DNA of 64,000 nt from Chiloscyllium plagiosum (Eukaryota): the NCBI RefSeq assembly GCF_004010195.1, contig NC_057758.1, forward strand, positions 4,904,702 through 4,968,701. Reading direction: 5' to 3'. Below the pieces are notes generated by a model. The model did not search any database. It was not told where the DNA came from and worked only from the letters and a program-made list of their open reading frames with translations. Below, piece by piece: positions 4,177 to 55,632 of this stretch. Made by a program: the position numbers and the translations under genes. How positions within the stretch are numbered: position 1 is the stretch's first letter; the number at the start of each line of letters is the position of its first letter.

Positions 4177-4259
4177 GGATTATGCCTGAGCTGCTGTGCT
4201 ATTCCAGCACCACACTCGAGACTCTAATCTCGACAATTTGCAGTCTTCACTTTCTCCTA
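4177..4259 (+). mobile_element. PLE family 1 terminal-repeat/tail remnant
   Basis: tgcctgagctgctgtgctattccagcaccacactcgagactctaatctcgacaatttgcagtcttcactttctcc matches the terminus at 4810-4891 and 21330-21415. Confidence 0.6.
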
Positions 4260-4672
4260 AACTTGCAAATTGCAGACCTGTTCGCTTGATATCAAGAATG
4301 GGAAGACTGATGGGAGCCAAAGTACGAAATAAGTTAAAATATACACCTAAAAGATTGAAAACAGACAGTATGGGAGGTAGACGATTCACAGATCGGAGAC
4401 AGTCTGAAGTGGTGGTTCCAGGCATAACTGCCTGAATCCTTATTGATTTTAATTCCTGAGAGAATCATTGAGAGATAGTTAATGAGAGTAAAATCCCTCA
4501 ATTCAGAAATGGCATTGATTAGGACCAATAGTGAATTGCGAAGATTCTAAGCAACGTCAGATGAACATTAACAGAATAAATCTCCAGCAGCATGTAAAAT
4601 CTTTTTCAGGAGTTTTTTTCTGAAAAACAAATTTGTTCTGAAACTCACATACTGGGGTGGTTGCAATATTTC

Positions 4673-4891
4673 ATCGAAAAGTGCAGGGCTGGAAAGGTAA
4701 GCTGGTCAGGCCGCATTCGAGGAGCAGGAGGGGCGACGTTTTGGGAATTAGCTCTTCAGCAGGAATTCCTGATGAACGCCATATGCCCGAAATATCGACT
4801 TCCTGCTCCTCAGATGCTACTTGACTGGCTGTTCTTTTCGCGAACCACACTCTTCGTCTCTGATCTCCAGCATTTGCAGTCCTAACTTTCT
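4673..4891 (+). mobile_element. Older PLE family 1 mini-element: head-to-head inverted terminal repeats plus tail, with decayed hammerhead motif
   Basis: Imperfect palindrome centred on aggaattcct (4761-4770). CTGATGA at 4769-4775, GAAA at 4789-4792, and an unpaired tail at ~4858-4891. Confidence 0.75.
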
Positions 4892-5189
4892 GCTTGATAC
4901 AGCATTGCCAAGCACGCGTATTCATTAACTGAAGGTACTGCGTGTTCTTATAAATGGAAACTGGGCTCTGACCATCTCAGTATCCCGCCAAGAGGATTAG
5001 CTGAAGATTTGGAGAGCACGGCTCTTGTTGCTTGTGTTTCTGGTGCTGGAACATCCCATCGAATCTAAATGTGGATTAAGAGGACGCTTTCTCTATGGGG
5101 GTAAGTGAGCTTTTCCGTCTCCAATCTGACGAGCCACTCCGACAGACGGGAGGAATTGATGGACCTGAAACGTCATTCAGATGAATCAG

Positions 5190-18589: not shown

Positions 18590-19329
18590 CTGCAAGAAAG
18601 GAAATTAACCAGCAAATTAACCAGCACTTGAGAAGTGCTCATTACGTTTGACAGCACATAGAGGAGCAGAGGTCCAGAACAAAGAGACACCACTTGAGAC
18701 AACATGTATGGCATCACTCAATGTTGTGGACCTTTGAATTCCTTGCACAGATTACCTTTAAAGTCAGAGTGTTTTTGTACATTTACGTGATACTGGGCTC
18801 AACATGTTCACCCTCCTACTACCTCCAGATATGCTGTCATGAAGAACAGCCATACTGGACATAAAACAGGTCTCAGGTAAGAATGTTCCAGATGACCAAA
18901 GGGGTCCAGAACCGGGAATGGGGTGCTAGTTGTGGTCACAGTACAAGTTTCGGCATAGGACTGAAATGAAATGTGAACTCCATTTCTCTCTCTCTCTTTC
19001 CACAGATGCTGCCAGACCTGCTGAGCTTCTGGAAGGTTTGTCCTGATATCATCTGTGCCAATGGCCTGAGAGGAAACGTCGCTGGGCGTCACTGAACATT
19101 TCAACGAAGGCAATGTGCCGAAACTGAGCTGATAATCGAAAGAAGACTGGTGGGATGAAGTAAGACTGAAACAGAAACTTTGCTGGTGTGGAACAGCATC
19201 ACAAATGGTGCAGCTAATTCCTTCAGCCCAAAACACTATTCCTAAAGTTTGAATAGGTTTTGGACTTACAAATGTGGTCGTAATGGAGGCAAAGACTGAA
19301 GAGGCATGAGACCTATCTGGCTGAAGAAA

Positions 19330-20830: not shown

Positions 20831-21079
20831 TTGCACCTCCGACTGTTAGAATCTTCAAAGGATACATGTGCAAATTTGAAATTGAACACTTTTCTTTCCA
20901 ATGAATGCCTCCCTGTCCCTTCAATTCCTGTGTTTCTCACTTCCCTGCCTCCATTTGTCCAGATGAATAGATAGGATAATTAAACTAACAGTAATGAACT
21001 GCTGGGCGTCTGAACCGAAAGCAGAAATGGCTGGAGAAACTCGCCAGGTCTGACGGAATCTGGGAGGTGGGGGGTAGGG

Positions 21080-21650
21080 TTAATGGTACAGTCTCTCTCT
21101 GCTGAGCACTGACTCCTCACAGCGCCAGGGACTCCGGTTTGATTCCTTCTTCATGCAACTGTCTGTGTGGAATTTGTATGTTGTTCACGTGTTACCTGGG
21201 TTTCATCTGAGTGCTGAAAATGTGTTGCTGGAAAAACGCAGCAGGTCAGGCAGCATCCAGGGAAAAGGAGAATCGACGTTTCGGGCATAAGCCCTTCTTC
21301 AGGAATATGCCCGAAACGTCGATTCTCCTGTTCCCTGGATGCTGCCTGACCTGCTGCGCTTTTCCAGCAACACATTTTCAGCTCTGATCTCCAGCATCTG
21401 CAGACGTCACTTTCTGCTCAAAGATTTCATCTGAGTGCACCGGTTTCATCCTACAGGCGAAAGATGTGCAGGATAGGCGAACTGGCCATTCTTAATTAAC
21501 CCTGTTTTCAGGGAGTGTCGGTAAGGTGCAATAGTCTGGGGTAAGTGCAGAGTGGTAGGGGAATGGGTCTGGGTGAGTTCCTCTTCAGAGTTTCGGTCTG
21601 GGCTAGTGGGCCAAAGGACCTGTTTCGACACTGTACGGATTGTATTCATC
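21080..21650 (+). mobile_element. HE1/V-SINE-type SINE, interrupted by a PLE mini-element (paralogs ~30845-31192 and ~54338-54685 are uninterrupted)
   Basis: gcactgactcctcacagcgccagggactccggtttgattcc head and ccaaaggacctgtttcgacactgta tail. Confidence 0.8.
21215..21424 (+). mobile_element. Young 210-bp non-coding PLE family 1 mini-element (77-bp inverted repeat + tail) with 14-bp TSD and a minus-strand hammerhead core
   Basis: TSD tttcatctgagtgc at 21201-21214 and 21425-21438. Arms 21213-21289 and 21306-21382 have 2 mismatches. The site is empty in the paralogs at ~30965 and ~54461. Confidence 0.9.
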
Positions 21651-22036
21651 ATGTTTCAGGTCCTGTTTCCAACTTCAGTCATTAGTACTGTTATACCCAC
21701 TCCCTTTTCGGGTGGAGGATTCGGCTGACACCGTTTCATCTCTGCTGATTTTGCAAAGAGCCTGTGGCATTCCCCGACAGAGTCATGCCTCAATTGGGAA
21801 GGCTGCTACCTCGAAGTGGATTGCGAAGAAGAGAAAACATCCGGGAAACAGCACACCAGGTTCGAAAATACGATACATATTTGATGGGGGCGGGGTGGGG
21901 TCAGATTGACATTTTGGACACACTGCCTGCATTCACCGATGTAGTTATTCATTGTATCCACGTTTGACTGTCCACAGAGTTGAGACTAAGGCATTTTCGT
22001 ACTGTTCTAATTTAGCTCTGCAAACGTAATGGCTGT

Positions 22037-24989
22037 AAAAGAATAACAAAGAACAATGAACAAAATAAGAAAAGATAAACTGCACAGGAACAGGCACTTT
22101 GGCCCTCCAAGCCCACGCTGATCCAGAGCCTCTATCTAATCCTGTCACCTATTTTGTAATTATCTGTATCCCTTCGCGCCATGCCCACTCATGTATCTGT
22201 CGAGATACATCTTAAATGACGCTTTCATGCCTGCTTCCACCATATCCACTGGCAAAGTGTTCAAGGCACACATCACACCCTGCGTAAAGAATTTCCCTTA
22301 ATATCTCCCTTCAACCTTTCCCACCTCACCTTGATCTGGTGATCCTTAGTACCGAGTTCCCCAGTCAGTGAAAAAAAAAACTTCCTTCTATTCACCAAGT
22401 GTGTACCTCTCATGATTTTGCTTATCTCAATCAATTCCGCCTCAACTTTTGTCTTTCTAATGAAAATATTTCCAACCTACTCAATCTCTCTTCACAGCTT
22501 GCGCCCTTCATATCAGGCCATATACTGGTGAACCTCCTCTGCAAACTCGCCAAACTATCCACATCATTTTGATAATGTGGCGACCAGAACCGAACTAGAA
22601 ATGGATCAAATGTGACGGAACTAAACAACTGCAACATGACCTGTCAACTCTTGTACACAATGCCCTGACCGATGAAGGAAAGCATGTCATCTGTCTTCTT
22701 GACCACTCTATCGAACTGCTTTGCCACATTCAGGGTACAATGGAAAAGATTACGCAGATCTCTTTGGTAGTCAATTTTCGAAAGGGCATTTCCTTTTACT
22801 GTATTATTCGTTCTTGAATTGGAACTTCCAAAATGTTTCATGATACTTCGCCCGGATTGAATTCCATCTGTCATTTCTCCTCCAAACTCTCCAGTGTGTC
22901 CATATTCTGCTGTATACTCTGACAGCCCCTTTAAAATACCTGCTCCTCTTTCAATCTGAGAGTCATCTTCAAACTTGCTAATCAGAACATTTCTCACTTC
23001 CTGCAGGTCATTTATGTATGTCACAATCAATGTGGTCACAACACGCATTCCTGTGGAACACCAATTTTCACATCAACTCCATTCCCTTCTACTCGATGTC
23101 TTCTGCTTCACAGTCAGTTTTCTATCCAACTAGCTATTACACCTTGTACCCCATGCGACTTCACTTTCTCCACCAGACTGTCATGAACGCCTTCCAAAAG
23201 ATCATGTTTTGACCACTACAGCCCTTTCCTCATCAATCAACTTTATCAAGTCCACAAGTAATTCTATTCAGTTTGTTCGACATTACTTTCCTTCCACAAA
23301 ACCATGCTGCCGGGTACTGCCCATTTTCTTGCAAATCTAAATAGTTCCTTTGCCTCAGTATGCTCACCAGCATCTTCACTACCGCTGACATCAGGCTCAT
23401 CGGTCTATAATTACCTGGACTATCTCTACTAACCGTCCTAAACAAAGCGACACCAGATCTCTGGGACCTCATCCGTGTTCGAAGACGATGCAGCGATATC
23501 TCTTCAGATCCCAGCTATTGCCTCTCTCACTTCCCTCAGTGTCCTGGTCATGACCCCATCAGAACCTCGGACTTGTTCGCTCTTATGCTTTTCAGACTAC
23601 CCATCAATTCCAACCTATTTATGCCGATTTTATCGAGTGTGACCAAAGATCTACCCCTAACCTCAACATCCGCCATGTCCCTATCTTTGGTGAATACTGA
23701 GGCAAAATAATATTTAACAATCTCATCCATTTTCTCTGGTTCCATGCATAACTTCCCTCCTTTCTCCATGAGTTGCACAACCCTTTCTTGAGTTAGCCTC
23801 TTGCCCCTTTCCTGCGAGAAAAGGGCTTTGAGATTTTCCTTAATCCTGTTTACACAAGACATTTCATGGCGATTTTTAAACTTCTTATATTTTCGTTTCA
23901 GATTGGTCCTACCTTCACGATATTCAACCAAATCTTCATTTGCTCTCAGTCGCCTAGACTTTGGCTCGACGTACTTTTTCCTCTCAGCTAACCTTACAAT
24001 TTCAAAGTTTGTGAGAAGATTTGTAGCTCGGGTGCTCGTTGTTGTGGTTCTGTTCGCCGAGCTGTGAATTTGTGTTGCAGACGTTTCATTCCCTGTCTAG
24101 GTGACATCCTCAGTGCTTCGGAGCCTTCTGTGAAGCGCTTCTGTGATGTTTCCTCCGGCATTTATAGTGACCTTGTTTGTGCAACTTCCGGTTGTCAGTT
24201 CCAGCTGTCCACTGCAGTGGCCGGTATGTTGGGTCCAGGTCGATCCTCCCAAGCACTGAGGATGTCACCTAGACAGGGGACGAAACATCTGCAACACAAA
24301 TTCCCAGCTCGGCGAACAGAACTACAACTTACAATTTCACCTGTCATTCATGGTTCCTTCATCTTTCCGTTTGTATCCCTCATTTTCGCAGGCACATGTG
24401 CGTCGTGCACTCTAATCAAACTCTCTTGAAAAGCCTCCCACTCATCAAATGTGAATTTACACTCAAAAAACTCATCCCAATCCACACCTCCAGATCGTGC
24501 TGAATTTTGCTGTCGTTGTCCTTCCCCCAGTTTAGCTCTTTTCCTTTAATACCACTGTCATCTTTGACCACGACGATTCTAAAAGTTACGGAAGTGTGTT
24601 CACTATTCCCTAAATTATCCCCAGCTGAAATTTGAACAACCTGGCCATGCTCGTTCCTCAACATAATTTCCAGTCTGACCCGATTCCAAGCGGGACCATT
24701 TTCCATACTGCTTTATAAACTCTCCTGGGTGTTTATAACAAATTTTGTTCCATCAAGAACTCTAACACGAGTCATTCCCAGTCAATTTTGGGATAAATAA
24801 AATCTCCCATTTCCCGCACCCTGTTGCTCGTTTATCTTTCCATAATCAGTTTATATATTTATGCCTCTCTCTCACGATCGCGTTGGGAGGCCTCTCGTAC
24901 AACCCCAGCATTTTTAACCACACTTTTCCTCTTTCTGAGCTCTGCCCATATTGCCTCACTGCGCGAGTCCTCCTTGTGCCCTCCTTCAA
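22037..24989 (-). mobile_element. Decayed CR1 LINE (CR1-A, copy 1), interrupted by a PLE
   Basis: ORF fragments FWSPHYQNDV, ISKFEDD, PGNYRPMSLMS, YFASVFTK. 3' tail (gaacaa/gaataa)n at ~22040. Confidence 0.85.
24005..24327. mobile_element. PLE family 2 insertion, collapsed 323-bp version (inverted terminal repeats + 36-nt tail; two hammerhead motifs)
   Basis: TSD cttacaatttca at 23993-24004 and 24328-24339. Hammerhead motifs at 24077-24116 (-) and 24253-24292 (+). Confidence 0.9.
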
Positions 24990-27950
24990 AGAAAAGAACA
25001 AAGACAATTTACAGCCCAGGAACAGGCCCTTCGGCCCGCCAAGCCTGAGCCAATCCAAATGTACAGTCAAAACCTGTTGGTCAATTCCTAAGAATCCGTA
25101 TCCCTCCGTTCCGCACCTACTCATGTATTTGTCCAGATGCATCTTAAATGAATCTACTGTATCTGCCTCTACCACCTCTGCTGGCAACGCATTCAAAACG
25201 CCCATCATCGTCTGTGTGAAGTACTTGCCGCATGTATCGCCCTTAAACTTTCTGCCTCTCACCTTGAAAGAGTGTCCTCTCGTTATTGAATCCTTCAACC
25301 TGGAAAAAGGTCTTTTCTCTACCCACCTTGTCTATAACCTTCGTGATTTTATTAACCTCAATCAGGTGCCCCTTCAAATTCCTTTTTTTCTGATGAAAAT
25401 AAACCTAACCTACTCAACCTTTCTTCATAGCTAGCATCTTCCATACCAGTCAACATCCTCGTAGACGTTCTCTGAACCCTCTCCAAAGCGTGCACATCCT
25501 TTTGGTAATGTGGCGACCAGAACTGTACACAGTATTCTAAATGCGGCTGAACCAATGTCTTGTACAATTTTAACATGACCTGCCAGCTTTTATACTCAAT
25601 ACCCTGTCCAATGAAGGCAAGCATACTATAAGCCGTCGTGACCACTCTAGCCACCTATGCAACAACCTTCAGGGGACAATGGACCTGCACGTCAAGATCT
25701 CTCTGCCCATCAACTTTTCCCAAGGCTCTTCCATTCATTGTATAATTCGCTCCAGAATTAGTCTTCCCTGAATGCATCATCTCATATTTGCCTGGATTGA
25801 AAACCATTTGCCACATTTCTGCCCAACTCTCCAGCCTATCTATATCCTCCTGTATTCTCTGACAGTCCCTTCTGCTTTCTACGACTCCACCAATCTTCGT
25901 GTCATCTGCAAACTTGGTGATCATCCCAATAATGACCTCTTCCAGATCATTTATGTATATTACAAACAACAGTGGCCCCAACACTGACACCTGTGGAACA
26001 CCACTGGTCACCTTTCTTCATTTCGAGAAACTCCCTTCAATTACTACTGTGTATCTCCTGTTGCTCAACCAATTCTTTATCCACCTATCTAGATCACCCT
26101 GACCACCATGTGACTTCACTTTCTCCATTAGTCTACCAGAGGGAACCTTATCAAACGCCTTCCAAATGTCCATGTATATGACATAAACAGCCCTTTCTTC
26201 ATCTATCAACTTGGTCACTTCCTCGACAACTTCTCTACAGTTGGTAAGGCACGATCCCCCCGCACAAAGCCATGTTGCCTATCACTGATAAGTCTATTTC
26301 TTTCTAAATATAAATAGATCCGATCCCTCAGTACCTTCTCCAGCAAAATTACCACCACTGACAACAGGCTCACTGGTCTGTAGTTACCCGGAATATCCCT
26401 AATACCCTTCCTGTGCAGGGGGATAAGATGAGCAGCACTCCAGTCCTCCGGCACCTGACCTGTATTTAATAATTCCACAAAAATATCTGTCAGTGCCCCA
26501 GTTATTTCCTCTTGCCTCCCTCAGCAACCTGGGATAGATCCCATCTGGTCCTGGTGATTTGTCCACCTTAATAACCTCTAGCCTACACAACATGTCTTCC
26601 CTACTTATGTCAACGTGATCCAGAATAATCAAACTTCTATCTCTAATCTCAACATTCATCATGTTCCTCTCCTCAGTGAACACTGATGCAAAATAACCAT
26701 TCAGAATCTCACCCATTCTCTCAGGTTCATCGTACAGCCTTCCATAGTTATTCTTTAGTGGATCAATCCTTTCTCTAGTTCGCCATTTGCTTCTGAAATG
26801 AGAATAAAATGTTTTGGGATTCTCCGTAATTCTGCTCGCTCAAGCCAATTCATGACCACTTTTAGCCCACTTGACTCCTCGTTTAAGACTTGTCCTACTA
26901 TTCCGAAATTCTTCCAAGGCCCGTTCTGTTCTTAGCTGCCTAGACCTTTTGTGTGCTTCTCTTTTCCTCTTGGGTAGTCGTATAATTTCTCATGTCATCC
27001 ACGGTGCACGAATCTTGCCCTTCCTATCCTTTGCTTTCAACGGGACACGCCAGTCCTGCACTACCTTTAACCTCTCTTTGAAAGCCTCCCACATCTCAAG
27101 TAAGAATTTCGCTTCAAAGAGCTGTGTCAAATCCACATTTCCGAGCTCCTACCTAATTTTGATAAACTTGGGCTTGGCCCAGTTTAGTACTCTTCCCTTA
27201 GGACCACTCTCTTTTTATCTACGACTATTCTAAAACGTACAAAATTGTGTTCACTGTTCTCAAAGAAATCCCCCACCGCAACTTCTACCACCTGCTCTGG
27301 CTCGTTCTTCAGTAAAAGGTCCAATATGACCCCTTCCCTCGTCGGACTATTGACATACTGCTCTATCCCTCAACTAAGTCTCATTCATATCCGTAAAATC
27401 ATACTCAAAGGTATTAATTCGAGGTCTAAATTCATCTGCCTTAACTTTTACGCTTCTCGAATTAATACAAATGCATCTCAGACCACATGTGCTCCCTCCT
27501 ACTCCCTCACTTAGTCACGCTGACTTCAATATCTCTTTCCTTACACGCTTTAGTTTCTACCTCCTCACTATCTGCTAACTTCCTTATATAGTTCCCCCCT
27601 GTGTCACATTCGTTTAATGTCTGCGCAACAGCGTTAGCGCGGGGACACTTAAGGACATTAGCTCCAGTCCACCCCAGGTGTCGAACGTCCAATTTCCAAT
27701 AGTCCCAGATTCCTCACAAACGGTGCCAATTTCCGAAAAGTCTGAACCCAACACTATTGCACCATCTCTCAGCCCTTCGTTCATCTTTTCTCTTCTTCCA
27801 TTTCTACTGTCCCCAGCTATATCAGTGCACAGGCCTACCCAGAGCCGACTGGCTGCCGAGGAAAGTCCTTTTTGAGGGAAATATACCTTCCCAGCAGACC
27901 TCAGCTCCGCGCTCTTACTGCTCCCTCTGCTACTGAAAATGGAGGCTGGG
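24990..27950 (-). mobile_element. Decayed CR1 LINE (CR1-B, copy 1)
   Basis: ORFs 25655..26011 (SGVPQVSVLGPLLFVIYINDL..KFADD), 26018..26218 (KAFDKVP), 26215..26478 (GNYRPVSL). Confidence 0.9.
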
Positions 27951-29354
27951 AATAGCGTAATGTGTCACTGACTTCCTGAATCTGCCCACAACTCTCTTCA
28001 CAATCGACACAAGTCAGGATGTTGAGGGAATAATTCCCAATTGCATTGTTGGATGAAAATTCAACAACACTCTGGGAATTCATCATCATAGAAGACAATC
28101 AGCCACCATCGTTGGCTTCACATTCACAAATGTCCTCTACATCAACATATAACGCTAAAGAGCAATAATGTGTGCTCCCCGCAGGATGCACCACAGAAAT
28201 TTTCAAAAGATACTTAGGAAACGTCTTCCAAACTTACAAGCATTTTCTTCGAGAAGGACATCTGTCAATTGACTCCCATGCCACTCACCATGTGACTTGA
28301 CAATCTATTCGCCGTTTCTTCAGTGTGGCTGGATTAATGCTCGGATCACCTCCCTCACGGAATTGTGTATTTACCTACAGCATGTGGACTGGCAACGTTT
28401 CAAGAAGGCAGCTCACCAATATCTTCTTAATGGGAAGATTTAGATGAGCAACAAATTATGCTCTAAGCCATTGACGTCCACATTCCACCAGAGCAGACAC
28501 AAAAAATAGCGAGATGACTTGGGAAAATAGACTCGAAAAGGAAGTTTCAGTTGTATTATATAATTTTGAAGCAGTAAATTCAATCGGGTATTAAACCAAC
28601 AACTTAATGAGGACTCGAATCCCTGGTAAATATTCTAGTGAATAAGATATATTAAAGTTCTTTCTTCAACAGTTGAAGCAGTCGCACAGAAGAAGGGTGT
28701 CTGTATTGCAAACATTAAGCCTGGTTCTGTTAACTGATGCTGCCGGAGGTGTTGTGTTTTCCCAGTACTTTATGTGTTTTTTATCTGATATAAGCAGTTC
28801 TTCCGGTTTGTTTGCGTCTGTTGGTTGGGCTGTGAGAAGGTCATCAATCATGACAGCATAGATTGCTGGAGAAACTCAAGTTTGCAGGTCGGACAATTTA
28901 CGTGGAGAGAAAGGGGAGTCAGAAGTTTGGGTCCAGTGAACCTTCGTCTTAACTCAGGAGACAAACAGTTCCTTGGGCTCACCTTGGACAAGCTCAAGTC
29001 TCAATCGCTGATTCAACGGGAGTTTATTGGTATAAACGGCAGGTTCTTGGGATGACATACGTTTTGGCAAAAGAATGAGGAGCAAGTCAGTGAGCATTCC
29101 AGTTTCTGAAGATGCCGAATGCGTTGGGATGGCGGAGGTGGAAAGGAGGGAAACTGACAAATAAAGCTAAGAATTCCATTTTGCAGCAAATGTCAAGGGG
29201 AAATGATGCAAAATCAGACTTGCTTTTCAGGAGAGAGATTTCTACTATTCAAGTACACATCAGTGTAAGAAGATTTACTGTTTGTGTGAGCCATTACAAT
29301 GTCAAATTCCAAACTTCGATCCATACATTATTTTTATTTACAGCTGGGATGTGA

Positions 29355-30136
29355 TCATCTTTGATTGTGACAACACGTTATTACCCATCTTGACCATTCT
29401 ATCGACTTGCTTTGCCAACTTCAGGGAACTTAAAACGAGATCTCTCTGGATATCAGTTTTCCCCAAAGCCTTTCCATTTACTGTGTGGTTCGCTTTGAAA
29501 TGGCTCTTCCAAAATGTTCCACCCTGCATTGCCCGGATTGAATTCCAACTGCCATTTCTCTGCCCAACACTACAATCTATCTATATTCTGCTGCATTCTC
29601 TTACAGTTAAATTCACTACTTGCTAATCCAGCAATCTTTGTGTCATCTGCAAAATTGCTGATCGGACCACTTATATATTTATGTATATCACAAACAGCAA
29701 TGGCCACAACACGAATCCCTGCGGACCACCACTGATCACAGTTCGCCATTTTGAGTAACTCCCTTCCACTACTAATGTTTGTCTCCTGCTGTCCAGTCAG
29801 TTCTTTATCCATATAACTAGTACACCCAGGAGCCATGCGACGTCACTTTCTCCGCTACCCTACAAAGGGGAAACCGATTAACCAACTCACTGAAGTGCAT
29901 GAATATGCTATCAACATACCTTTCCTCATCAATCAACTTTGTCACTTTGTCAAAGAATTCAATTAAATTGGTATGATATGTATTTCCCTAGACAAAAAGA
30001 GATGCCATTTACTGTTAAGACAATTTTCTTGCAATCCTAAATACATCCTCTGCCACAGTAAATATTCCAGCATTTTCCCCACCCTGACAATACCTTGACC
30101 AGTCTATAATCGCCTTGATTATCCCTGCTACCCTTC
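29355..30136 (-). mobile_element. CR1 RT fragment (CR1-C, copy 1)
   Basis: ISNFADDTKIAG in ORF 29570..29836; paralog of ~39105-39901. Confidence 0.8.
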
Positions 30137-30678: not shown

Positions 30679-33277
30679 TGTCCCTTCAATTCCTGTGTTT
30701 CTCACTTCCCTGCCTCCATTTGTCCAGATGAACAGATAGGATAATTAAACTAACAGTAATGAACTGCTGGGCATCTGAACCGAAAGCAGAAATGGTTGGA
30801 GAAATTCGCCAGGTCTGACGGAATCTGGGAAGTGAGGGGCAGACTTAATGGTACAGTCTCTCTCTGCTTAGCACTGACTCCTCACAGCGCCAGGGACTCG
30901 GGTTTGATTCCTTCTTCATGCAACAGTCTGTTGGAATTTGTATGTTCTTCACGTGTTATCTGGGTTTCATCTGAGTGCTCCGGTTTCATCCCACAGTCGA
31001 AGGATGTGCAGGATAGGCGAACTGGGCATTGTAAATTAACCACTGTTTTCAGAGAGGTGTTGGTAAGGTGCATTAGTCTCGGGTAAGTGCAGAGTGGTAG
31101 GGGAATGGGTCTGGGTGAGTTACTCTTCAGAGTTTCGGTCAGGGCTAGTGGGCCAAAGGACCTGTTTCGACACTGTAGGGATTGTATTCTTCATGTTTCA
31201 GGTCCTGTTTCCCAACTTCAAAAATTAGTACTGTTATACGCTCTCCCGTTTCGGGTAGAGGATTCGGCTGACACCGTTTCATCTCTGCTGATTTTGCAAG
31301 AGCCTGTGGCACTCCCTGACAGAGTCATGCCTCAATTAGGAAGGCTGCTACCTCTAAGTGGACTGCGAAGGAGAGAAAACATCCGGGAAACAGCACACTA
31401 GGTTCAAAAGAACGATACATATTTGAGGGGGGGGGGGGGATGGTTGTGGTGGGGTGGGTCAGCTTGACATTTGTCTTAAATAACACTATCATGCCTGCTT
31501 CCACCATATCCAATGGCAAAGTGTTCGAGGCACCCATCACACTCTGCGGAAAGAATTTTCCATAATATCTCCCTTCAACCTTTCCCACCTCACCTTGATC
31601 TGGTGATCCTTAGTACCGAGTTCCGCAGTCAGTGACAAAAAACTTCCTTCTATTCACCACGTGTGTACCTCTCATGATTTTATTTATCTCAATCAATTCT
31701 CCCTCAACTTTTGTCTTCCTAATGAAAATATTTCCAACCTACTCAATCTCTCTTCACAGCTTGCGCCCTTCATATCAGGCAATATCCTGGTGAACCTCCT
31801 CTGCACACTCGCTAAACTATCCACATCATTTTGATAATGTGGCGACTAGAACCGAACTAGAAATGGATCAAATGTGACGGAACTAAACAACTGCAACATG
31901 ACCTGTCAACCCTTGTACACAATACCCTGACCGATGAAGGAAAGCATGTCATCTGTCTTCTTGACCACTCTATCGAACTGCTTTGCCACATTCAGGGTAC
32001 AAAGGAAAATATCACGCAGATCATTTTGGTAATCAATTTTCTAAAAGCCATTTCCATTTACCCGTATTATTCTTTCTTGAATTGGAACTTCTAAACTGTT
32101 TCATGATACTTCGCCCGGATTGAACTCCATCTGTCATTTCTCCTCCAAACTCTCCAGTGTGTCCATATTCTGCTGTATACTCTGACAGTCTCTTTCAATA
32201 CCTGCTCCTCCATCAATCTGAGAGTCAGCTTCAAACTTGCTAATCAGAACACTTCTCCCTTCCTGCAGGTTATTTATGTATGTCACAATCAATGTGGTCA
32301 CAACACGCATTCCTGTGGAACACCACTTTTCACAGCAACTCGCTTCCCTGCTACTCGATGTCTTCTGCTTCACAGCCGGTTGTCTATCCATTTTGCTAGT
32401 ATACCCTGTACCCATGCGACTTCACTTTCTCCACCAGACTATCATTGGAAAACAGATCAAACGTCTTCCAAAAGTTTATGTTTTTGACCATTACAGCCCT
32501 TTCCTCATCAATCAACTTTATCAATTCCACAAGTAATTCTATTAAGTTTGTTAGACATTATTTTCCTCCACAAAACAATGCTGCCGCTTGCTGCCCATTT
32601 TCTTGCAGATCTAAAAAGTTCCTTTGCCTCAGTATGCTCCCCAACAGCTTCACCACCGCTGACGTCAGGCTCATCGGTCTGTAATTACCTGCACTCTCTC
32701 TACTAACCTTCTTAAACAAAGAGTCACCAGTCCTCTGGGACTTCATCCGTGTTCGTTGACGTTGCAGTGATATCTCTTAAGATCCCAGTTATTGCCTCTC
32801 TCACTTTCCTCAGTGTCCTGGGCATGACCCCATCAGAACCTCGGACTTGTTCGCTCTTATGCTTTTCAGACTACCCACCAATTCCACCCTATTTATGCCG
32901 TCTTTATCGAGTGTGACCAAACATCTAGCCCGAACCTCAACATCCGTCTTGTCCCTCTCTTTGGTGAATACTGAGGCAAATACCAGTTAACAATCTCACC
33001 CATTTTCTCTAGTTCCATGCATAACTTCCCTCCTTTCTCCATGAGTTGCACAACCCTTTCTAGAATTAACCTCTTGCCCCTTTCCTGCGAGCAAAGGGCT
33101 TTGAGATTGTCCTTAATCCTGTTTACACAAGACATTTCATGGCGTTTTTCAAACTTCTTACATCTTCGTTTCTGATTGGTCCTACTTTCACGATATTCAC
33201 CCAAAGCTTCATTTGCTCTCAGTCACCTAGAATTTGGCCCTACGTACTTTTTCCTCTCAGCCAATCTTACAATTTCA

Positions 33278-34431
33278 AAGTTTGTGAGAAGATTTGTAGC
33301 TTGGGTGCTCGTTGTTGTGGTTCTGTTCGCCGAGCTGGGAATTTGTGTTGCAGACGTTTCGTCCCCTGTCTAGGTGACATCCTCAATGCTTGGGAGCCTC
33401 CTGTCAAGCGCTTCTGTGATGTTTCCTCCTGCATTTATAATGATTCGTTTCTGCAACTTCCGATTGTCAGTTCCAGCTGTCCACTGCAGTGGCCAGTATA
33501 TTGGGTCCAGGTCGATGTGCTTATTGATTGAATCTGTGGATGAGTGCCATGCCTCTAGGAATTCCCTGGCTGTGCTCTGTTTGGCTTGTTTGACTTCACA
33601 TTCACATTCAATAACCAAATATATGAACAAATCCACGCACACCCATGGGCTCACCCATCTCTGGACTCATAGCAGAAGCGGTAATGCATAGGTCAGAACA
33701 AACAGTCTGACCATAAAGTCAACCCAAACTCTGGGTCAGATATGTAGATGATACCTTTCTAATCGTTAAAAACACAGAAATAGAGAAAACACACCGGATC
33801 ATCAACGCCACACTCACAGGAATCCGATTCACTAGAGAGGAAGAAAAGGGCAACCAACTCCCATTACTAGACGTGATTATACAGAGACCACCGAATGGAG
33901 AATTCACCACTAAGGTATACAGGAAAGCCACACACACAGACCAAGTCCTAAACTACGAAAGCATCCACCCCAACACACACAAAAGAAGTTGCATCAAGAC
34001 ACTGTTCAAAATGGCCACAACACACCGCAGTACACCAGAACTGCAAAAAGAGGAAGAAGAACACCTATAGAATGCATTCGTCAAAAACGGAAAGCCCTGA
34101 CATTTCATCAACAGATGCCAAAGGGAAAGACAACAGAGTGAGGACATGCCACAACCCAAAGGACTAGCCACACTACCATGCATAAAAAACATTTCTGAAC
34201 TGACCACAGATTCAATCAATAAACACATCGATCTGGACCCAATATACCGGCCACTGCAGCGGACAGCTAGAACTGACAACCGGAAGCGGCAGATACAAAT
34301 TGCTTTTAATGCCGGAGGAAACATCACAGAAGCGCTTCACAGGAGGCTCCCAAGCACTGAGGATGTCGTCACCTAGACAGGGGACGAAACGTCTGCAACA
34401 CAAATTCCCAGCTCGGCGAACAGAACCACGA
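33278..34431 (+). mobile_element. PLE family 2 insertion, 1154-bp version (inverted 3' segment + RT C-terminal half + terminal repeat)
   Basis: TSD cttacaatttca at 33266-33277 and 34432-34443. KLWVRYVDDTF at ~33726-33760 and VYRKATHTDQVLNYESIHP. The GIY-YIG N-terminal half is deleted at ~34205. Confidence 0.9.
34354..34396 (+). ncRNA. Minimal type I hammerhead ribozyme motif (best-preserved catalytic core in the window)
   Basis: GCA-CTGAGGA-T-GTCGTCACCT-AGAC-AGGGGAC-GAAAC-GTC-TGC. Stem I is GCA/TGC, stem II closes G-C, stem III is the palindrome ACGT, and the cleavage triplet is GUC. Confidence 0.7.
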
Positions 34432-35093
34432 CTTACAATTTCACCTGCCATCCATGGTTCCTTAATCTTTCCGTTTGTATTCCTCATTTTCGCAGGCACA
34501 TGTGCGTCCTGTTCTCTAATCAAACTCTCTTGAAAAGCCTCGCACACATCAAATGTGAATTTACACTCAAAAAGCTCATCCCTATCCATACCCCCAGATC
34601 GTGCTGAATTCTGCTGTCGTTGTCCTTCCCCCAGTTTAGCTCTTTTCCTTTAATACCATTGTCGTCTTTGACCACGAGGATTCTAAAAGTTACGGAAGTG
34701 CGATCACTATTCCCTACATAATCCCCAGCTGAAATTTGAACAACCTGGCCAGGTTCGTTTCTCAACATAATTTCCAGTCTAACCCGATTCCAAGCGGGAC
34801 TATTTACATACTGCTTTATAAAACTCACCTGGATGTTTCTAACAAGTTTTGTTCCATCAAGACCTCTAACACGAGTCATTCCCAGTCAATGTTGGGATAA
34901 TTAAAATCTCCCATTTCCAACACCTTGTTGCTCGTTTAACTTTCCATAATCAGTTTATATATTTATGCCTCTCTCTCACGATCGCGTTCGAAGGCCTCCA
35001 GTACAACCCCAGCATTTTTTAACCACACTCTTCCCATTTCTGTGCTCTGCCCATATTGCCTCACTGCACGTGTCCTCCATGTGCCCTCCTTCA

Positions 35094-37690
35094 AAGAAAA
35101 GAACAAAGACAATTTACAGCCCAGGAACAGGCCCTTCGGCCCGCCAAGCCTGAGCTGATCCAAATGTACTGTCGAAACCTGTTGGTCAATTCCTAAAAAT
35201 CCGTATCCCTCTGTTCCCCACCTACTCATGTATTTGTCCAGATGCATCTTAAATGAATCTACTGTGTCTGCCTCTACCACCTCTGCTGGCAACGCATTCA
35301 AAACGCCCATCACCCTCTGTGTGAAGTACTTGCCGCTTGTATCCCCATTAAACTTTCTACCTCTCACCTTGAAAGAGTGTCCTCTCGTTATTGAATCATT
35401 CACCCTGGGAAAAGACTTTTCTCTATCTTCCTTGTCGATAATCTTCATGATTTTATTAACCTCAATCAGGCCCCCCCCTCAATTCCTGTTACTTTTCTCT
35501 ATCTTCCTTGTCTATAATCTTCATGATTTTATTAACCTCAATCAGGCCCCCCCTCAAATTCCTTTTTTCTGATGAAAATAAAACTAACCTACTCAACCTT
35601 TCTTCATAGCTAGCATCTTCCATACCAGTCAACATCCTCGTAAACATTCTCTGCACCCTCTTCAAAGCGTGCACATCCTTTTGGTAATGTGGTGACCAGA
35701 ACTGTACACAGTATACTAAATGTGGCTGAACCAATGTCTTGTACAATTTTAACATGACTTGCCAGCTCTTATACTCAATACCCTGTCCCACGAAGGCAAG
35801 CATACTATATGCCGTCTTGACCACTCGAGCCACCTGTGCAGCAACCTTCAGGGTACAATGGACCTGCACTACAAGATCTCTCTGGCCATCAACTTTTCCT
35901 AAGGCTCTTCCGTTCATTGTATAATTCGCTATAGAATTAGTCTTACCTCATATTTGTCTGGATTGAAAACCATTTTCCACATTTCCGTCCAACTTTCCAG
36001 CCTATCGATATCCTCCTGTATTCTCTGACAGTGCCTTATGCTTTCTACGACTCCACCAATCTTCGTGTCATCTGCAAACTTGCTGATCGTACCAATAATG
36101 ACCTCTTACAGATCATTTATGTATATTACAAAGAACAGTGGCCCCAACACTGACACCTGTGGAACACCACTGGTCACCTTTCTCCATTTCGAGAAACTCC
36201 CTTCAATTACTACTGTGTATCTCCTGTTGCTCAACCAATTCTTTATCCACCTAGCTAGAACACCCTGACCACCATGTGACTTCACTTTCTCCATTAGTCT
36301 ACCATGGGGAACCTTATCAAACGCCTTACAAATGTCCATGTATATGACATAAACAGCCCTTCCTTCATATATCAACTTGGTCACTTCCTCAAAGAATTCT
36401 CTACAGTTGGTAAGGCATGATCCCCCCGCACAAAACCATGTTGCCTATCACTGATAAGCACATTTTATTTTCTAAAGATAAATAGATCCGATCCCTCAGT
36501 ACCTTCTCCAGCAAATTTGCCACCATTTACAACAGGCTCACTGGTCTGTAGTTCTCCGGAATATCCCTAATACCCTTCCTGTGCAGGGGGACAACATAAG
36601 AAGCACTCCAGACCTCCGGCACCTGATCTGTATTTAATGATTCCTCAAAAATATCTGTCAGGGCCCCAGCTATTTCCTCTTGCCTCCCTCAGCAACCTGG
36701 GATAGATCCCATCTGGTCCTGGTGATTTGTCCACCTTTATAACCTCTAGCCGACACAACACGTCTTCCCTACTTATGTCAATTTGATCCAGACTAATCAA
36801 ACTTCTATCTCTAATATCAACATTCATCATGTTCCTCTCCTCAGTGAACACTGATGCAAAATAACCATTCAGAATCTCATCCATTCTCTCAGGTTCAACG
36901 TACAGCCTTCCATCGTTATCATTTACTGACGAATCCTTTCTCTAGTTAGCCAATTGCTTCTTATATGAGAATAAAATGTTTTGGGATTCTCCTTAAGTCT
37001 GCTCGCTCAAGCCAATTCATGACCCCTTGTAGCCCACTTGACTCGTCGGTTAAGACTTGTCCTACTATTCCGAAATTCTTCCAAGGCCCGTTCTGTTCTT
37101 AGCTGCTGAGACCTTATGTGTGCTTCTCTTTTCCTCTTGGGTAGTCGTACAATTTATCATGTCATCCACGGTTCACGAATCTTGCCCTTCCTATCCTTTA
37201 CTTTCAACGGGACAAGCCAGTCCTGCACTACCTTTATCCTCTCTTTGAAAGCCTCGCACATCTCAAGTGCGGATTTTCCTTCAAAGAGCTGTGTCAAATC
37301 CACATTTCCGAGCTCCTACCTAATTTTGATATACTTGGGCTTGGCCCAGTTTAGTACTCTTCCCTTAGGACTACACTCTTTTTATGAGGGGACACTCAAG
37401 GACTTTAGCTCCAGTACACCCCAGGTGTAGAACGCCCAATTTACAATAGTCCCAGGTTCGCCACAAACGGTGCCAATTTCCCAAAAATCTGAACCCAACA
37501 CTATTGCCCTATCTCTCAGCCCTTCGTTCATCTTTTCTGTTCTTTCATTTCCACTGTGCCCAACTATATCAGTGCACTGGCCTACCCAGAGACGACTGGC
37601 TGCCGAGGAAAGTCCTTTTTGAGGGAAATGTACCTTCCCAACAGACCACAGCTCCTCGCTCTCACTGCTCCTTCTGCTACTGAAAATGGA
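35094..37690 (-). mobile_element. Decayed CR1-B, copy 2
   Basis: ORFs 35489..35917 and 36106..36384 (KAFDKVPHGRL, SGVPQ). Confidence 0.9.
35415..35563 (+). repeat. 76-bp direct tandem duplication, specific to copy 2
   Basis: acttttctctatcttccttgtc..aatcaggccccccctcaa at 35415 and 35491; single copy in the paralogs at ~25312 and ~60940. Confidence 0.9.
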
Positions 37691-39104
37691 GGCTTTGAAT
37701 CGCGTAATGAGTCACTGAGTTCCTGAATCTACCCAAAACCCTCTTCACAATCGACACAAGTCAGGATGATAAGGGAATAATTCCCAACTGCATTGCTGGA
37801 TAAAAATTCAACAACACTCTGGGAATTCATCATCATAGAAGACAAACAGCCAACATCATTGGCATCACATTCACAAATATCCGCTACATCAACTTATAAC
37901 GCTAAAGAGCAATAATGTGTGCTCCCCGCAGGATGCACTACAGAAATTTTCAAAAGATACTTAGGCAACACCATCCAAACGAACAAGCATTTTCTTCGAG
38001 AAGGACATCTGTCAGTTGACTCCGATGCCACTCACCATCGTGACTTGACAATCTATTCGCCGTTTCTTCAGTGTGGCTGGATGAATGCTCGGATCACCTC
38101 CCTCACGGAATTGTGTATTTACCTACAGCATGTGGACTGGCAACGTTTCAAGAAGGCAGCTCACCAATATCTTCTTAATGGGCAGATTTAGATGAGCAAC
38201 AAATTATGCTCTCAGCCATTGACGTCTACATTCCACCAGAGCAGACATAAAAAATAGCGAGATGACTTGGAAAACAGACGCGAAAAGGAAGTTTCAGTTG
38301 TATTATATAATTTTGAAGCAGTGAATTCAATCGGGTATTAAACCAACAACATAATGATGACTCAGATCCCTGGTAAGTATTGTAGTGAATAAGAGACATT
38401 AAAGTTCTTTCTTCAACAGTGGAAGCAGTGGCACAGAAGAAGGGTCTCTGTATTGCAAACATTAAGCCTGATTCTGTTAACTGATGCTGCCGGAGGTGTT
38501 GTGTTTTCCCAGTACTTTATGTGTTTTTTATCTGATATATGCAGTTCTTCCGGTTTGTTTGCGTCTGTTGATTGGGCTGTGAGAAGGTCATCAATCATGA
38601 CAGCATAGATTGCTGGAGAAACTCAAGTTTGCAGTTCGGACAACTTATGTGGAGAGAAAGCGGAGTCAGAAGTTTGGGTCCAGTGAACCTTCATCTGAAC
38701 TCAGGAGACAAACAGTTCCTTGGACTCACCGATCAATGACAAGCTCAAGTGTCAATCGCAGATTCAACGGGAGTTTATTGGTATAAACGGCAGGTGTTTG
38801 GGATGACATACGTTTTAGCAAAAGAATGAGGAGTAAGTCAGTGAGCATTCCAGTTTCTGAAGATGCCGAATGCGTTGGGGTGGCGGAGTTGAAACGGAGG
38901 GAAAATGACAAATAAAGCCAAGAATTCCATTTTGCAGCAAAAGTCAAAGGGAAATGATGCAAAATCAGACTTGCTTTTCAGGAGAGAGATTTCGACTATT
39001 CAAGTACACATCATTGAAAGAAGATTTACTATTTGTGTGAGTGATTACAATGTCAAATTCCAAACTTCGATCCATACATTATTTTTATTTACAGCTGGGA
39101 TATG

Positions 39105-41990
39105 ATCATCTTTGATTGTGACAACACGTTATTACCCTTCTTGACCATTCTATCGACTTTCTTTGCCAACTTCAGGGTACAATGGAACTTAAAAACGAGA
39201 TCTCTCTGGATATCAGTTTTCCCCAAAGCCTTTCCATTTACTGTGTGGTTCGCTTTAAAATGGCTCTTCCAAAATGTTCCACCCTGCATTGCCCGGATTG
39301 AATTCCAACTGCCATTTCTCTGCCCAACACTACAATCTATCTATATTCTGCTGCATTCTCTGACATTTAAATTCACTATCTGCTAAACCAGCAATCTTTG
39401 TGTCATCTGTAAAATTGTTGATCAGACCACTTATATATTTATGTATATCACAAATAGCAATGGCCACAACACGAATCCCTGCGGCCCACCGCTGTTCACA
39501 GTTCGCCATTTTGAGTAACTCCCTTCCACTACTAATGTTTGTCTCCTGCGGTCCAGTCAGTTCTTTATCCATATAACTAGTACACCCAGGAGCCATGCGA
39601 CTTCACTTTCTCCGCTACCCGACCAAGGGGAATCCGATTAAACAACTCACTGAAATGCATGAATATGCTATCTACATATCTTTCCTCATCAATCAACTGT
39701 TTCACTTCGTCAAAGAATTCAAGTAAATTAATATGACATGAATTTCACTAGACAAAAAGAGATGCCGTTTACTGTTAAGCCAATTTTCTTGAAATCCTAA
39801 ATACATCCTCTGCCTCAGTAAATATTCCAGCATTTTCCCTGACAATAACTTGACCAGTCTATAATCGTCTTGATTATCCCTGCTATCCTTCTGAAACAGA
39901 GGGACGCCATCGTAATCCTCCGAAACTCCCGGACCTCATACATGTTTAAGGATGCTGGAAAGATATCTGTTAAGGTCCCAGCTATTTCCTATCTCGCTTC
40001 TCTCAGTAACCTGGGATCGAACCAATCAGGATCTGAGGACTTAGACACCTTAATGCCTTTTGCAAAAGCCAAAACTTCATTCCCACTAATGCCGATTGAT
40101 CTTGAGTAAACAAACATCTATCTTTAATCTCAACATCCGTAATACCCCTCTCCTTCGCGAATACCGATGCAAAGCATTCATAAAGATTCAGATTCTTCCT
40201 ATAACTGAGTGGGCGTAAAATTTGTTGTGTTACTCTCTTATTCCTCTCATACAAATAAAAAGCTTTGGAATTTTCCTTGATGCTGTTTTCTCAAGCTATT
40301 TCACGACCCTCTTTAGACCTCTTGACTCACCATTTCTGATTTGCCCTACTTTGCCGATATTATTCCAAAGCATCGCCTGTTTTCAGTCATCTAGACCTTA
40401 TGTTTGATTTCTTTATCCTCTTAGCTCGTCTCACAATTTCACCTGTTTCCGCCATTTGTTTTAGATTTCTAGTCCTAAATTTCACAGGTTCACGTATGTC
40501 CTGCACTCTACTCAATCTCTCTTTAAACATCAAATGTGGATTTACCCTGAAGCAGCTGCTCCCAATCCACATTCGCCAGCTCCTGCCGAGTTTTGCTGCA
40601 GTTGACCTTCCCCCAAAGTACCAGTCTTCCAATAGGACCACTCTCTTCTTTGTCCATGGTTCTTCTGGCCGCTACGGAATTGTGAGGAGTATTCTCAAAA
40701 TAATCCCCTTCTGAAGGTTCAATCAGTGGCCGGGCTCATTCCACAACACCAATTCCAGTAAGGCCCCATCCCGAGTTGTACTGTTTCCATATTGTTGTAT
40801 AAACTCTCCGAGATGATCCTTACAAATTTTGCTTCATCTAGACCTCTGACACGAAATGACTCTCAGTCAATATTAGGAAAATTAAAATCTCTCAATACCA
40901 CCACACTGTTGCTCCTACATCTTTCCATAATTTGTTTGTATATTTGCACCTCAATCTCACACACTCTGTTGGGACGCCTGTCATACAGTCCCACCATTGT
41001 TACCTCACACTTCGTATTTTTAAACTCTGTCCATATAGCCTGACTGCTCCAGTCCTACAAATGACGTCCTTCAGCATGGCTGTGATGTCCTCTCTGACTA
41101 GTAATGGAAGTCCGCCACTCATTTCAACTTCTTCTCTCTCCTGAATAAATCATCAATATCCTGGGATATCGAGATGCCATTCTTGCTCATCCCTCAACCA
41201 AGTATTACTAATAGCAATAGCATCATACTCCCAGGTACTAATCCAATCTCGAAATTCGTCTGCCTTGCACTTGCATTAAAACAAATGCCCACTTCAGGCC
41301 ACCAGTCCCTTTGCGTTCGTCATGTGCTCCAATTCTCCGCAGGCTTCATCCACCCAAATGGTCAGGTTGACTTTATTATCTCGTTCCTTACAGGTTTTAG
41401 TTAGTACTTATTTACTGTCCATTAATCTGATCATTCGGTTCCAATCCACCTGCCACATTAATTTAAACAAACCAAAACAGCATAAGCAAAAGCACCCAAA
41501 GGTCACTGGTTCCAGTCCTGGTGGCTGTCGCCCGTTCAAGTTGTAATAGGAGAAAGTGTGGTCTGCAGATGCTGGAGATCAGAGCTGAAGAAGGGCTTAT
41601 GCCCGAAACGTCGATTCTCCTGTTCCCTGGATGCTGCCTGACCTGCTGCGCTTTTCCAGCAACACATTTTCAGCCAAGTTGTAATAGCCCCACCTCCTTC
41701 AGAACCAGTCAAAATGTTCCAAAGGTCTGCTCCGTTCCCTCCTGCACCATTTGATCAGAGACTCATTCATCCTGCCTACACTTTAGTTTCTACTCTAACT
41801 GATATACTACCTGAACCATACTTTGTACTGAGTTATTCCATCGCTCCCGCTCAGTTCTTCGCACACAACGTCCCTGCTACTGCAAAATGGATGCCACTAA
41901 CTCTTCAGGTCAATCCTTTCAGAGGGAAATTTACCTTCCCAGCGGCCCCGATCGTCGCTCCCACTGCTCCCACTGTTGCTGAACATGGCG
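39105..41990 (-). mobile_element. Old CR1 LINE (CR1-C, copy 2), RT to 5' end
   Basis: NNFTDDTKIAG, CFASVFAKE, endonuclease remnants at ~40850-41290. Its 5' end resembles that of CR1-B (37620-37690). Confidence 0.8.
41550..41674. mobile_element. Young 125-bp non-coding PLE family 1 mini-element with 13-bp TSD and intact hammerhead core
   Basis: TSD caagttgtaatag at 41537-41549 and 41675-41687. The tail is on the minus strand (41550-~41585), joined to plus-strand CTGAAGA-A-GGGC-TTAT-GCCC-GAAAC-GTC (41585-41612). Confidence 0.9.
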
Positions 41991-54100: not shown

Positions 54101-55632
54101 CACCTCCGACTGTTAAAATCTTCAAAGGATACATGTGCAAATTTGAAATTTCTTTCTTTCCAATAAATGCCTCCCTGACCCTTCAATTCCTGTGTTTCTC
54201 ACTTCTCTGCCTCCATTTGTCCAGATGAATAGCTAGGATAATTAAACTAACAGTAATGAACTGCTGGGTGTCTGAACCGAAAGCAGAAATGGCTGGAGAA
54301 ACTCGCCAGTTCTGACGGAATCTGGGAAGGGGGGCAGAGTTAATGGTACCGTCTCTCTCTGCTTAACACTGACTCCTCACAGCGCCAGGGACTCGGGTTT
54401 GATTCCTTCTTCATGCAACTGTCTGTGTGGAATTTGTATGTTCTTCATGTGTTCCCGGGGTTTCATCTGAGTGCTCCGGTTTCATCCCACAGGCGAAAGA
54501 TGTGCAGTGTAGGCGAACTGGCCATTCTAAACTAACCAGTGTTTTCAGAGAGGTGTAGGTAAGGTGCATTAGTCTGGGGTAATTAGTGTGGTAGGGGAAT
54601 GGGTCTGGGTGAGTTACTCTTCAGAGTTTCGGTCTGGGCTAGTGGGCCAAAGGACCTGTTTCGACACTGTAGGGATTGTATTCTTCAAGTTTCAGGTCCT
54701 GTTTGCCAACTTCAGTAATTAGTACTGTTATACCCACTCCCGTTTCGGGTGGACGATTCGGCTGACACCGTTTCATCTCGGCTGATTTTGCAAAGAGCCT
54801 GTGGCACTCCCTGACAGAGTCATGCCTCAATTGGGAAGGCTGCTACCTCGAAGTGGATTGCGAAGAAGAGAAAACATCCGGGAAACAGCACACCAGGTTC
54901 AAAAGAACGATACATATTTGAGGGGGGGGGGGTTGTGGGGTGGCGGGGTGGGTCAGATTGACATTTTGGACACACTGCCTGCATTCACCGATGTGTTTAT
55001 TCATTGTATCCACGTTTGACTGTCCACAGAGTTGAGACCAAGGCATTTTCACACTGTTCTAATTTAGCTCTGCAAACGTAATGGCTGGAAAAGAATAACA
55101 AAGAACAATGAACAAAATAAGAAAACATAAACTGCACACGAACAGGCACTTTGGCCCTCCAAGCCCGCGCTGATTCAGAGTCTCTATCTAATCCTGTCAC
55201 CCATTTTGTAATTATCTGTATCCCTTCGCGCCATGCCCATTCATGTATCTGTCGAGATGCATCTTTAATGACACTATCATGCCTGCTTCCACCATATCCA
55301 CTGGCAAAGTGTTCGAGGCACCCATCACACTCTGCGTAAAGAATTTTCCATAATATCTCCATTCAACCTTTCCCACATCACCTTGATCTAGTGATCCTTA
55401 TTACCGAATTCCCCAGTCAGTGACAAAGACACTTCCTTCTATTCACCGCGTGTGTACCTGTCATGATTTTGTTTATCTCAATCAATTCTCCCTCAACTTT
55501 TGTCTTCCTAATGAAAATATTTCCAACTTACTCAATCTCTCTTCACAGCTTGCGCCCTTCATATCAGGCAATATCCTCGTGAACCTGCTCTGCAAACTCG
55601 CCAAACTATCCACATCCTTTTGATAATGTGGC

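Follow-up and report, generated by a model that had tools for sequence, protein, structure and literature searches.

The insertions closest to the one described here are those of endonuclease-bearing (EN+) Penelope-like elements (PLEs), for which an inverted, 5'-truncated copy of the pseudo-LTR (pLTR), a one-sided tail of 30-40 bp and a target site duplication (TSD) have been reported (PMC3846280, PMC8557442). Among these elements the Neptune and Nematis clades are distinguished by a CX2-5CxxC linker ahead of the endonuclease (PMC8557442). For PAc, the Poseidon element of Anolis carolinensis, two internal start sites of reverse transcription, which bound the tail, were described in vitro; both target strands were extended and hammerhead cleavage was dispensable, and no RNA ends were reported at the hammerhead cut site (PMC11167929). 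The minimal hammerhead ribozymes (min-HHRs) of metazoan PLEs are described with a helix I of 4-5 bp and with self-cleavage in dimeric form (PMC4209133), and Drosophila Penelope with an internal promoter and a start within the pLTR (PMC2377424). In LINE-1 (L1), an extra 5' G of full-length insertions has been interpreted as copied cap (PMC11702581).

We analysed an insert in a 64,000-nt stretch of the Chiloscyllium plagiosum genome (contig NC_057758.1; this whole stretch is called the window). The insert is a head-to-head pair of terminal-repeat stubs of a Neptune/Nematis-type PLE, one of them with a tail of about 37 nt and the other tail-less (Table 1) and, judged by sequence, it is made up only of PLE terminal-repeat sequence. 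The pair was probably created in one integration, in which both cut target strands primed on PLE RNA.

The insert, its target site and its parent element

The 210-bp insert (21215-21424) is flanked by two identical 14-bp TSD copies. The preliminary description of this DNA was right in reporting a perfect 14-bp repeat at both ends of the insert, and also in reporting an empty site, with a single TSD copy, in both paralogous blocks, where the flanks are 92% (around 30965) and 91% (around 54461) identical. Its dating needs some correction: the insert does post-date the segmental duplication, which has diverged by 8-9%, but 'very young' is an overstatement for a copy with 4 differences in 210 bp from the majority letters of its family. 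One contig spans an empty site but has the indels of the paralogues, hence it is uninformative on polymorphism. There are three paralogous blocks in the window (at about 21050-30000, 30800-40400 and 54300-63600), which are 91-95% identical and abundant in LINE-like repeats. The element inserted into an older SINE-like repeat, which we take to resemble shark HE1/V-SINE.

Table 1. Features of the insert and of related sites in the window (element positions counted from the C of CUGAAGA)
Feature	Position	Strand	Remarks
Left TSD copy (14 bp)	21201..21214	+	last two bases coincide with element sequence at the first priming site
Arm A, PLE terminal-repeat stub	21215..21306	-	-4 to about +87/+89; tail-less; whole hammerhead
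Minimal type I hammerhead core	21275..21302	-	CUGAAGA, extra A, 4-bp stem II with 4-nt loop, GAAA, palindromic ACGU, C17
Arm B, PLE terminal-repeat stub	21306..21424	+	+13 to +131; ends in tail; lacks the 5' half of the hammerhead
Tail	21383..21424	+	spans from one preferred 3' end of the family (mode near +90) to the other (mode near +126)
Right TSD copy	21425..21438	+	first five bases are the element's continuation past the tail; 5-nt match, second priming site
Unoccupied paralogous target site	30965..30978	+	one TSD copy
Second insertion of the same family	41537..41687	-	tail-less arm reaching the core and short tail arm, 5-nt overlap
Unoccupied paralogous target site	54461..54474	+	one TSD copy

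The inverted arms (21210-21289 and 21306-21385) enclose a 16-nt loop, and the 77-bp stem with two mismatches and the 42-nt unpaired tail that had been described before were reproduced in full. The folding z-score was -22, and none of 200 shuffled sequences was equally stable. Positions were numbered from the C of CUGAAGA (0), which puts the predicted cut before +28. On this scale the two arms are unequal: arm A contains -4 to +12, absent from arm B, and arm B contains the tail, absent from arm A. Base 21306 is common to both arms, making a 1-nt overlap at the junction, and the TSD and the element have 2 nt in common at the outer end of arm A and 5 nt at that of arm B. The second insertion listed in Table 1 has its own 13-bp TSD (41537-41549 and 41675-41687). 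Older relatives of the terminal repeat, 67-92% identical and in some cases arranged as inverted pairs, are found in the window at 1106-1156, 1516-1642, 4170-4261, 4688-4894 and 18991-19028.

The search of the genome (3.56 Gb, 101,977 contigs) identified 33,157 exact copies of the 28-nt core and 83,325 copies of a 28-nt stretch downstream of it; the reversed patterns, used as controls, gave 0 in both cases. The suggestion that the insert represents a PLE end was borne out, as the sequence runs upstream into a GIY-YIG endonuclease and downstream into the start of an ORF, the latter being reached behind the tail in rare copies only. In longer copies the terminal repeat is preceded by a pyrimidine-rich 3' region and this by the GIY-YIG frame. 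A TSD-flanked copy of 670 bp (L085) leads from the GIY-YIG frame to the same hammerhead and tail, and its frame matches PF01541 with an E of 6.5e-5 (23.6 bits vs. a cut-off of 22.6). The endonuclease is C-terminal and has two cysteines within its motif, as in EN+ PLEs. It is preceded by a CX4CxxC linker, within the range of Neptune and Nematis, which was read from a 1.57-kb insertion with the same two-arm plan (L113). By this linker motif, which fits Neptune and Nematis equally, the parent would be a Neptune/Nematis-type PLE.

Three loci (L486, L477 and L483) have the layout inverted arm, terminal repeat, ORF start, N-run and 3' repeat with tail, with about 3.9 kb between the hammerhead positions, as calculated from the fetched loci. 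These three and two further loci (L459 and L479) have the pLTR at both ends, the optional inverted copy and the tail. In L486, thumb to endonuclease can be read in one frame, and the middle of the element reads N. In EN+ PLEs the reverse transcriptase (RT) lies upstream of the endonuclease within one ORF; here, RT fragments in two copies are 73-74% identical to the RT of a sister PLE, which matches RVT_1. No complete ORF of this subfamily was found, the middles being N. The 3' ends of the family are bimodal, with modes about 37 nt apart. Walking upstream, by which the sequence was followed to about 1 kb, yielded no full-length copy. L202 was rejected as a full-length element, it turned out to be a copy of this family inserted into a sister PLE: its positions 1-1200 contain the inserted copy, with a 13-bp TSD, at a nearly homologous site of the sister PLE, an arrangement that mimics full length. 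Long open frames among the candidates for the sister PLE turned out to be N-runs. The sister PLE RT has 48,800 first-look candidates genome-wide; PLEs are a major repeat class of this genome.

Where the copies begin

Arms and pairs were sampled as position-ordered pattern matches in the first 8 Mb of one contig, because the top similarity matches, all of 200-210 bp, reflect ranking bias. Of 91 core-bearing arms 75 begin at -9 to 0. The second sample was picked on downstream sequence and comprised 112 arms, 13 of which were bounded by N and left out. Among the 99 remaining arms, 32 start at -5 to -3, 38 are spread over 0 to +45 and two lie at -30 to -7; 22 in all start upstream of -7, and these we ascribe to another template or site. 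Some of the upstream 'ends' are points of subfamily divergence. The starts thus peak sharply at the front edge of the hammerhead, contrary to the view that the copies are simple truncations of continuous length. One arm, at +28, begins at the hammerhead cut site, and among these 99 arms there was no genomic sign of cut templates.

Position -4 is the exact 5' edge of stem I. It lies in the context TCATTC, which resembles the initiator consensus, and it is preceded at a distance of 30 nt by TTATCT in 75/79, 44/44 and 11/12 long arms of three close subfamilies; in a diverged subfamily the distance is 32 nt (17 of 19 long arms). A base that does not match the template precedes -4 in 5,359 arms; among the first 100 listed, it is G in 67, A in 18 and T in 15 cases, an excess of G with p 4e-17 relative to composition. 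That these arms might form a subfamily in which the G at -5 is templated was rejected, as they have no upstream sequence in common. Based on the genomic copies, it is likely that the pile-up at -4 represents run-off at the 5' end of the element RNA. We found no description of this run-off in the openly available articles on Penelope-like elements that we searched.

The same boundary is seen in tandem arrangements. When 50 loci were fetched for the sequence behind the tail (the 26th match was false), 25 had a fragment of the ORF start followed directly by a new arm of the same sense. The new arm begins at -6 to -3 in 21 of the 25, at 23 different ORF positions ranging from 66 to 839. Ahead of the -4 start the base is mostly C, with 13 of the 25 matching to -5, and G occurs once; C makes up 40% of the ORF strand. 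This preference for C over G is not what a simple cap-G model would lead one to expect. The tandem loci (L430-L478, e.g. L431, L444, L456 and L473, as well as L480 and L481) have an ORF-start piece of 66-839 nt and then an arm starting at about -5; in L480 and L481 the ORF fragment before the new arm extends to the RT. L473 combines arms of two different subfamilies, as would be expected if synthesis had jumped from one RNA to another. In a polyA single-cell RNA run there was an increase in read depth of about fourfold to fivefold at -4; both strands were represented, the clipped flanks were mixed, and there was no stack of molecule starts at -4 in this run. The pattern repeats the genomic one, as expected of copies embedded in host RNA, and is not informative on the RNA start.

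It is possible to keep the two-arm PLE product and explain the pile-up at -4 differently, as a stop of the RT at the folded or protein-bound edge of the hammerhead, or as an RNA-processing site. We think this unlikely. The explanation would leave both the G excess at target junctions and the fixed spacing of the upstream motif unaccounted for, there is no AG (splice acceptor) ahead of -4, and the coincidence of -4 with the terminal base of stem I, which at first sight speaks for it, must be set against the consideration that the 3' strand of stem I would have to be unwound before the enzyme reaches -4. The dominance of C over G at the tandem junctions and the lack of RNA starts in the single-cell reads would fit such a stop.

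Run-off at the RNA start could also be part of a wider scheme, which we offer tentatively, as a possibility rather than as the probable course of events. The copies would constitute a fossil record of strong-stop synthesis, starting from two sites near the 5' end of a capped mRNA, passing through the uncut hammerhead and running off at the RNA start; the cDNA would then be joined to the target, be joined to the cDNA of the other strand (giving a hairpin), or jump to another element RNA. Such jumps would create hammerhead-to-hammerhead direct repeats, one of which, with a 320-nt unit, would have been amplified as a retrozyme-like mini-element. If true, this would show the birth of a retrozyme from PLEs.

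The amplified mini-element, which has an internal deletion, is found in a younger sister subfamily (L399-L428, e.g. L410, L416, L425 and L427). It consists, in this order, of hammerhead, tail, about 120 nt of ORF start, 3' region and second hammerhead. A unit of 320 nt was measured in 12 of 30 loci, and the downstream junction was identical in all 30. The top 40 matches were 100% identical over 123 nt, and there were 1,704 first-look candidates. Stem I is a perfect 4-bp helix, and L410 and L425 begin at -4. By its sequence organization the mini-element looks like a PLE-derived retrozyme.

The hammerhead and the inverted pairs

The minimal hammerhead motif that had been noticed on the minus strand (21302-21275) is present and conserved across the family. 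It has the CUGANGA, GAAA and UH boxes, the extra base after A9, the G10.1-C11.1 pair and the palindromic stem III, with the predicted cleavage site between 21275 and 21274. The core was invariant in four subfamilies, chosen on flanking motifs, with changes only at N7, in loop II and at position 1.3; as the subfamilies are close relatives, this may be taken as modest evidence of selection. Stem I had been called weak, and in this subfamily it does consist of 2 bp followed by a U-U mismatch, but after the mismatch there is a third pair (3 of 4 pairs), and the sister subfamily has all four. The search of Rfam, which had been proposed as a check, found no hammerhead family at E<=10, only sub-threshold matches to miRNA hairpins, by chance. 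In the predicted fold of the minus-strand RNA of this copy the core pairs with arm B, and forcing the hammerhead fold would cost 38 kcal/mol here, compared with 3.7 when the arm stands alone. On the plus strand half of the core is missing. Because the core would be buried in the stem and the plus strand is incomplete, ribozyme activity of this copy is predicted to be unlikely.

The idea that the hammerhead cut might serve as the boundary of a retrovirus-like R region was not supported by the strand-transfer test: between the two best-sampled subfamilies there was no arm with the upstream type of one and the downstream type of the other, and one possible case came from a third subfamily. A different repeat family of the window (24041-24328, 33314-34432 and 58528-59959) also carries a hammerhead, in this case with a longer stem II, and has inverted arms. 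It is present in all three paralogous blocks; its cores are at 24113 (minus), 34357 (plus) and 59887 (plus).

We collected 62 distinct inverted pairs. Of these, 48 consist of one tailed and one tail-less arm, one is tail-tail, one short-short and 12 are other. The 48 tailed/tail-less pairs are 123-542 bp long and have 38 different junctions, with an exact 12-18-bp TSD in 36. The arm reaching the front edge of the hammerhead is the tail-less one in 23, the tailed one in 10 and both in 6 of the 48. The overlap between target and element was on average 1.8 and 1.4 nt, values that refer to the 21 of 53 pairs retained by the filter, as the microhomology script mis-extended some subfamily variants. 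The junction of the insert studied here occurs in 28 copies genome-wide, vs. 33,157 exact cores. Among the 28 the tail is on the +13 arm in 25 (three with the other arm masked by N) and on the -4 arm in 3, a bias in the same direction as in the wider sample. The same-junction copies span several haplotypes, while the arms within one copy are alike (L376, L380, L384, L388, L398); the haplotypes already indicate that these copies do not group among all arms. Since both polarities and several haplotypes are represented among the 28, the junction must have recurred independently, and it appears likely from these comparisons that junctions form anew at each insertion.

A very improbable alternative to priming by both target strands is fold-back, in which one cDNA or antisense RNA would have copied itself into a hairpin; self-priming on an antisense template is among the mechanisms proposed for head-to-head PLE repeats (PMC3846280). 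The shortness of the overlaps at the junctions and the haplotypes shared by the arms agree with it, but it does not account for an arm pair in which either partner may reach -4, nor for the position of both outer ends on the two family-wide 3' modes, and for this copy fold-back of one cDNA is excluded because each arm holds bases missing from the other.

The preliminary description also considered a non-autonomous family of the MITE or retrozyme kind. That the 210-bp hairpin should be such an element, transcribed, self-cleaving and mobile as a unit, is hardly credible, since the at least 40 near-full-length look-alikes (92-100%), the 25:3 polarity bias and the true amplified mini-element of the sister subfamily are outweighed by the small share of cores with this junction, the opposite polarities and differing haplotypes of the copies that have it, the 38 junctions in 48 pairs, the variable outer ends, the cost of the hammerhead fold in this copy and its lack of a second same-sense hammerhead. 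MITEs are bounded by terminal inverted repeats that are symmetric, and their TSD is short and fixed; here neither structure nor junction is fixed, the tail is on one end only and the TSD is mostly 12-18 bp. With one whole hammerhead and arms arranged head to head, the insert also lacks the repeat structure of non-LTR retrozymes, which are further characterized by abundant monomer RNA in linear and circular form.

Integration model and comparison with known systems

Priming by both cut target strands on PLE RNA would account for the insert as follows. The GIY-YIG nuclease of the element would make a 14-nt staggered cut, to judge from the TSD. Priming would then take place at two sites, as described in vitro for PAc: one 3' end would pair through 2 nt near +89, the other through 5 nt near +131. 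The first cDNA would pass the uncut hammerhead and reach -4, the likely 5' end of the RNA, and the second would halt at +13. Joining of the cDNA ends via the 1-nt overlap and fill-in would complete the insertion. The hairpin product is likely to be a dead end, because the ribozyme is predicted to be locked up in the stem. We regard the PLE origin, the anatomy of the arms, the heterogeneity of the junctions and the pile-up of 5' ends as established, and put forward the RNA start and the order of events as proposals; any cleavage by the ribozyme would be hypothetical.

Taken singly, this locus holds a dead PLE insertion of an ordinary kind, the product of a known class, and its layout of inverted truncated pLTR, one-sided tail and TSD has already been published (PMC3846280, PMC8557442). 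The pattern proposed at the level of the family, i.e. two-strand priming, uncut templates, run-off ahead of the hammerhead and template jumps, would be a refinement, of which we found no account in the literature searched. Tens of thousands of copies bear on the question how PLEs form tandem and inverted ends and on the role of the hammerhead. They indicate that in the living animal both target strands are primed at two tail-defining sites, that the ribozyme has left most of the copied RNA uncut, and that copying stops at a fixed point just ahead of the ribozyme.

The insert shares the head-to-head pLTRs, the tail at one end, the TSD and the hammerhead within the pLTR with the EN+ PLE insertions, as far as these are described in PMC3846280 and PMC8557442, and larger copies in this genome have the textbook layout. 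It differs from them by the absence of an ORF and by the small size of the arms (about 90-130 nt each), and the 5' ends of this family, instead of being evenly spread, have their maximum at the front of the hammerhead. The similarity to PAc extends to two start sites bounding the tail, use of both strands, no need for cleavage and a lack of RNA ends at the cut site, which are here inferred from genomic copies (PMC11167929). Unlike PAc, the present family carries the Neptune/Nematis linker CX4CxxC. Its ORF begins past the tail whereas that of PAc begins inside the hammerhead, and there are short target matches at the priming sites, where PAc was reported to initiate in the absence of homology (PMC11167929).

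The ribozyme resembles the metazoan PLE min-HHRs, as characterized in PMC4209133, in its core boxes, the extra base between 9 and 10.1, the G10.1-C11.1 pair, the palindromic loopless stem III and the short stem I, and also in that most copies are solo and some neighbour each other on opposite strands. Its stem II has 4 bp rather than the 7-8 bp of the Schistosoma families (PMC4209133), and in this copy the motif is predicted to pair with its own antisense arm. Like the non-LTR retrozymes, as outlined in PMC7229834 and bioRxiv 10.64898/2026.07.22.740005, the insert is non-coding, has a type I hammerhead, is related to PLEs and has a long TSD; the retrozymes are, however, head-to-tail repeats with a hammerhead in each unit, whereas the insert is head to head and contains one whole hammerhead. 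A mechanistic parallel is offered by twin priming of LINE-1, in the form given in PMC11702581, with two primings from two target ends, a preserved 12-18-bp TSD, an end-joined inversion junction and an extra G. The two L1 cDNAs cover adjacent parts of the RNA (PMC11702581), whereas those of the insert would start at two fixed sites and overlap in the RNA they copy, which results in a hairpin.
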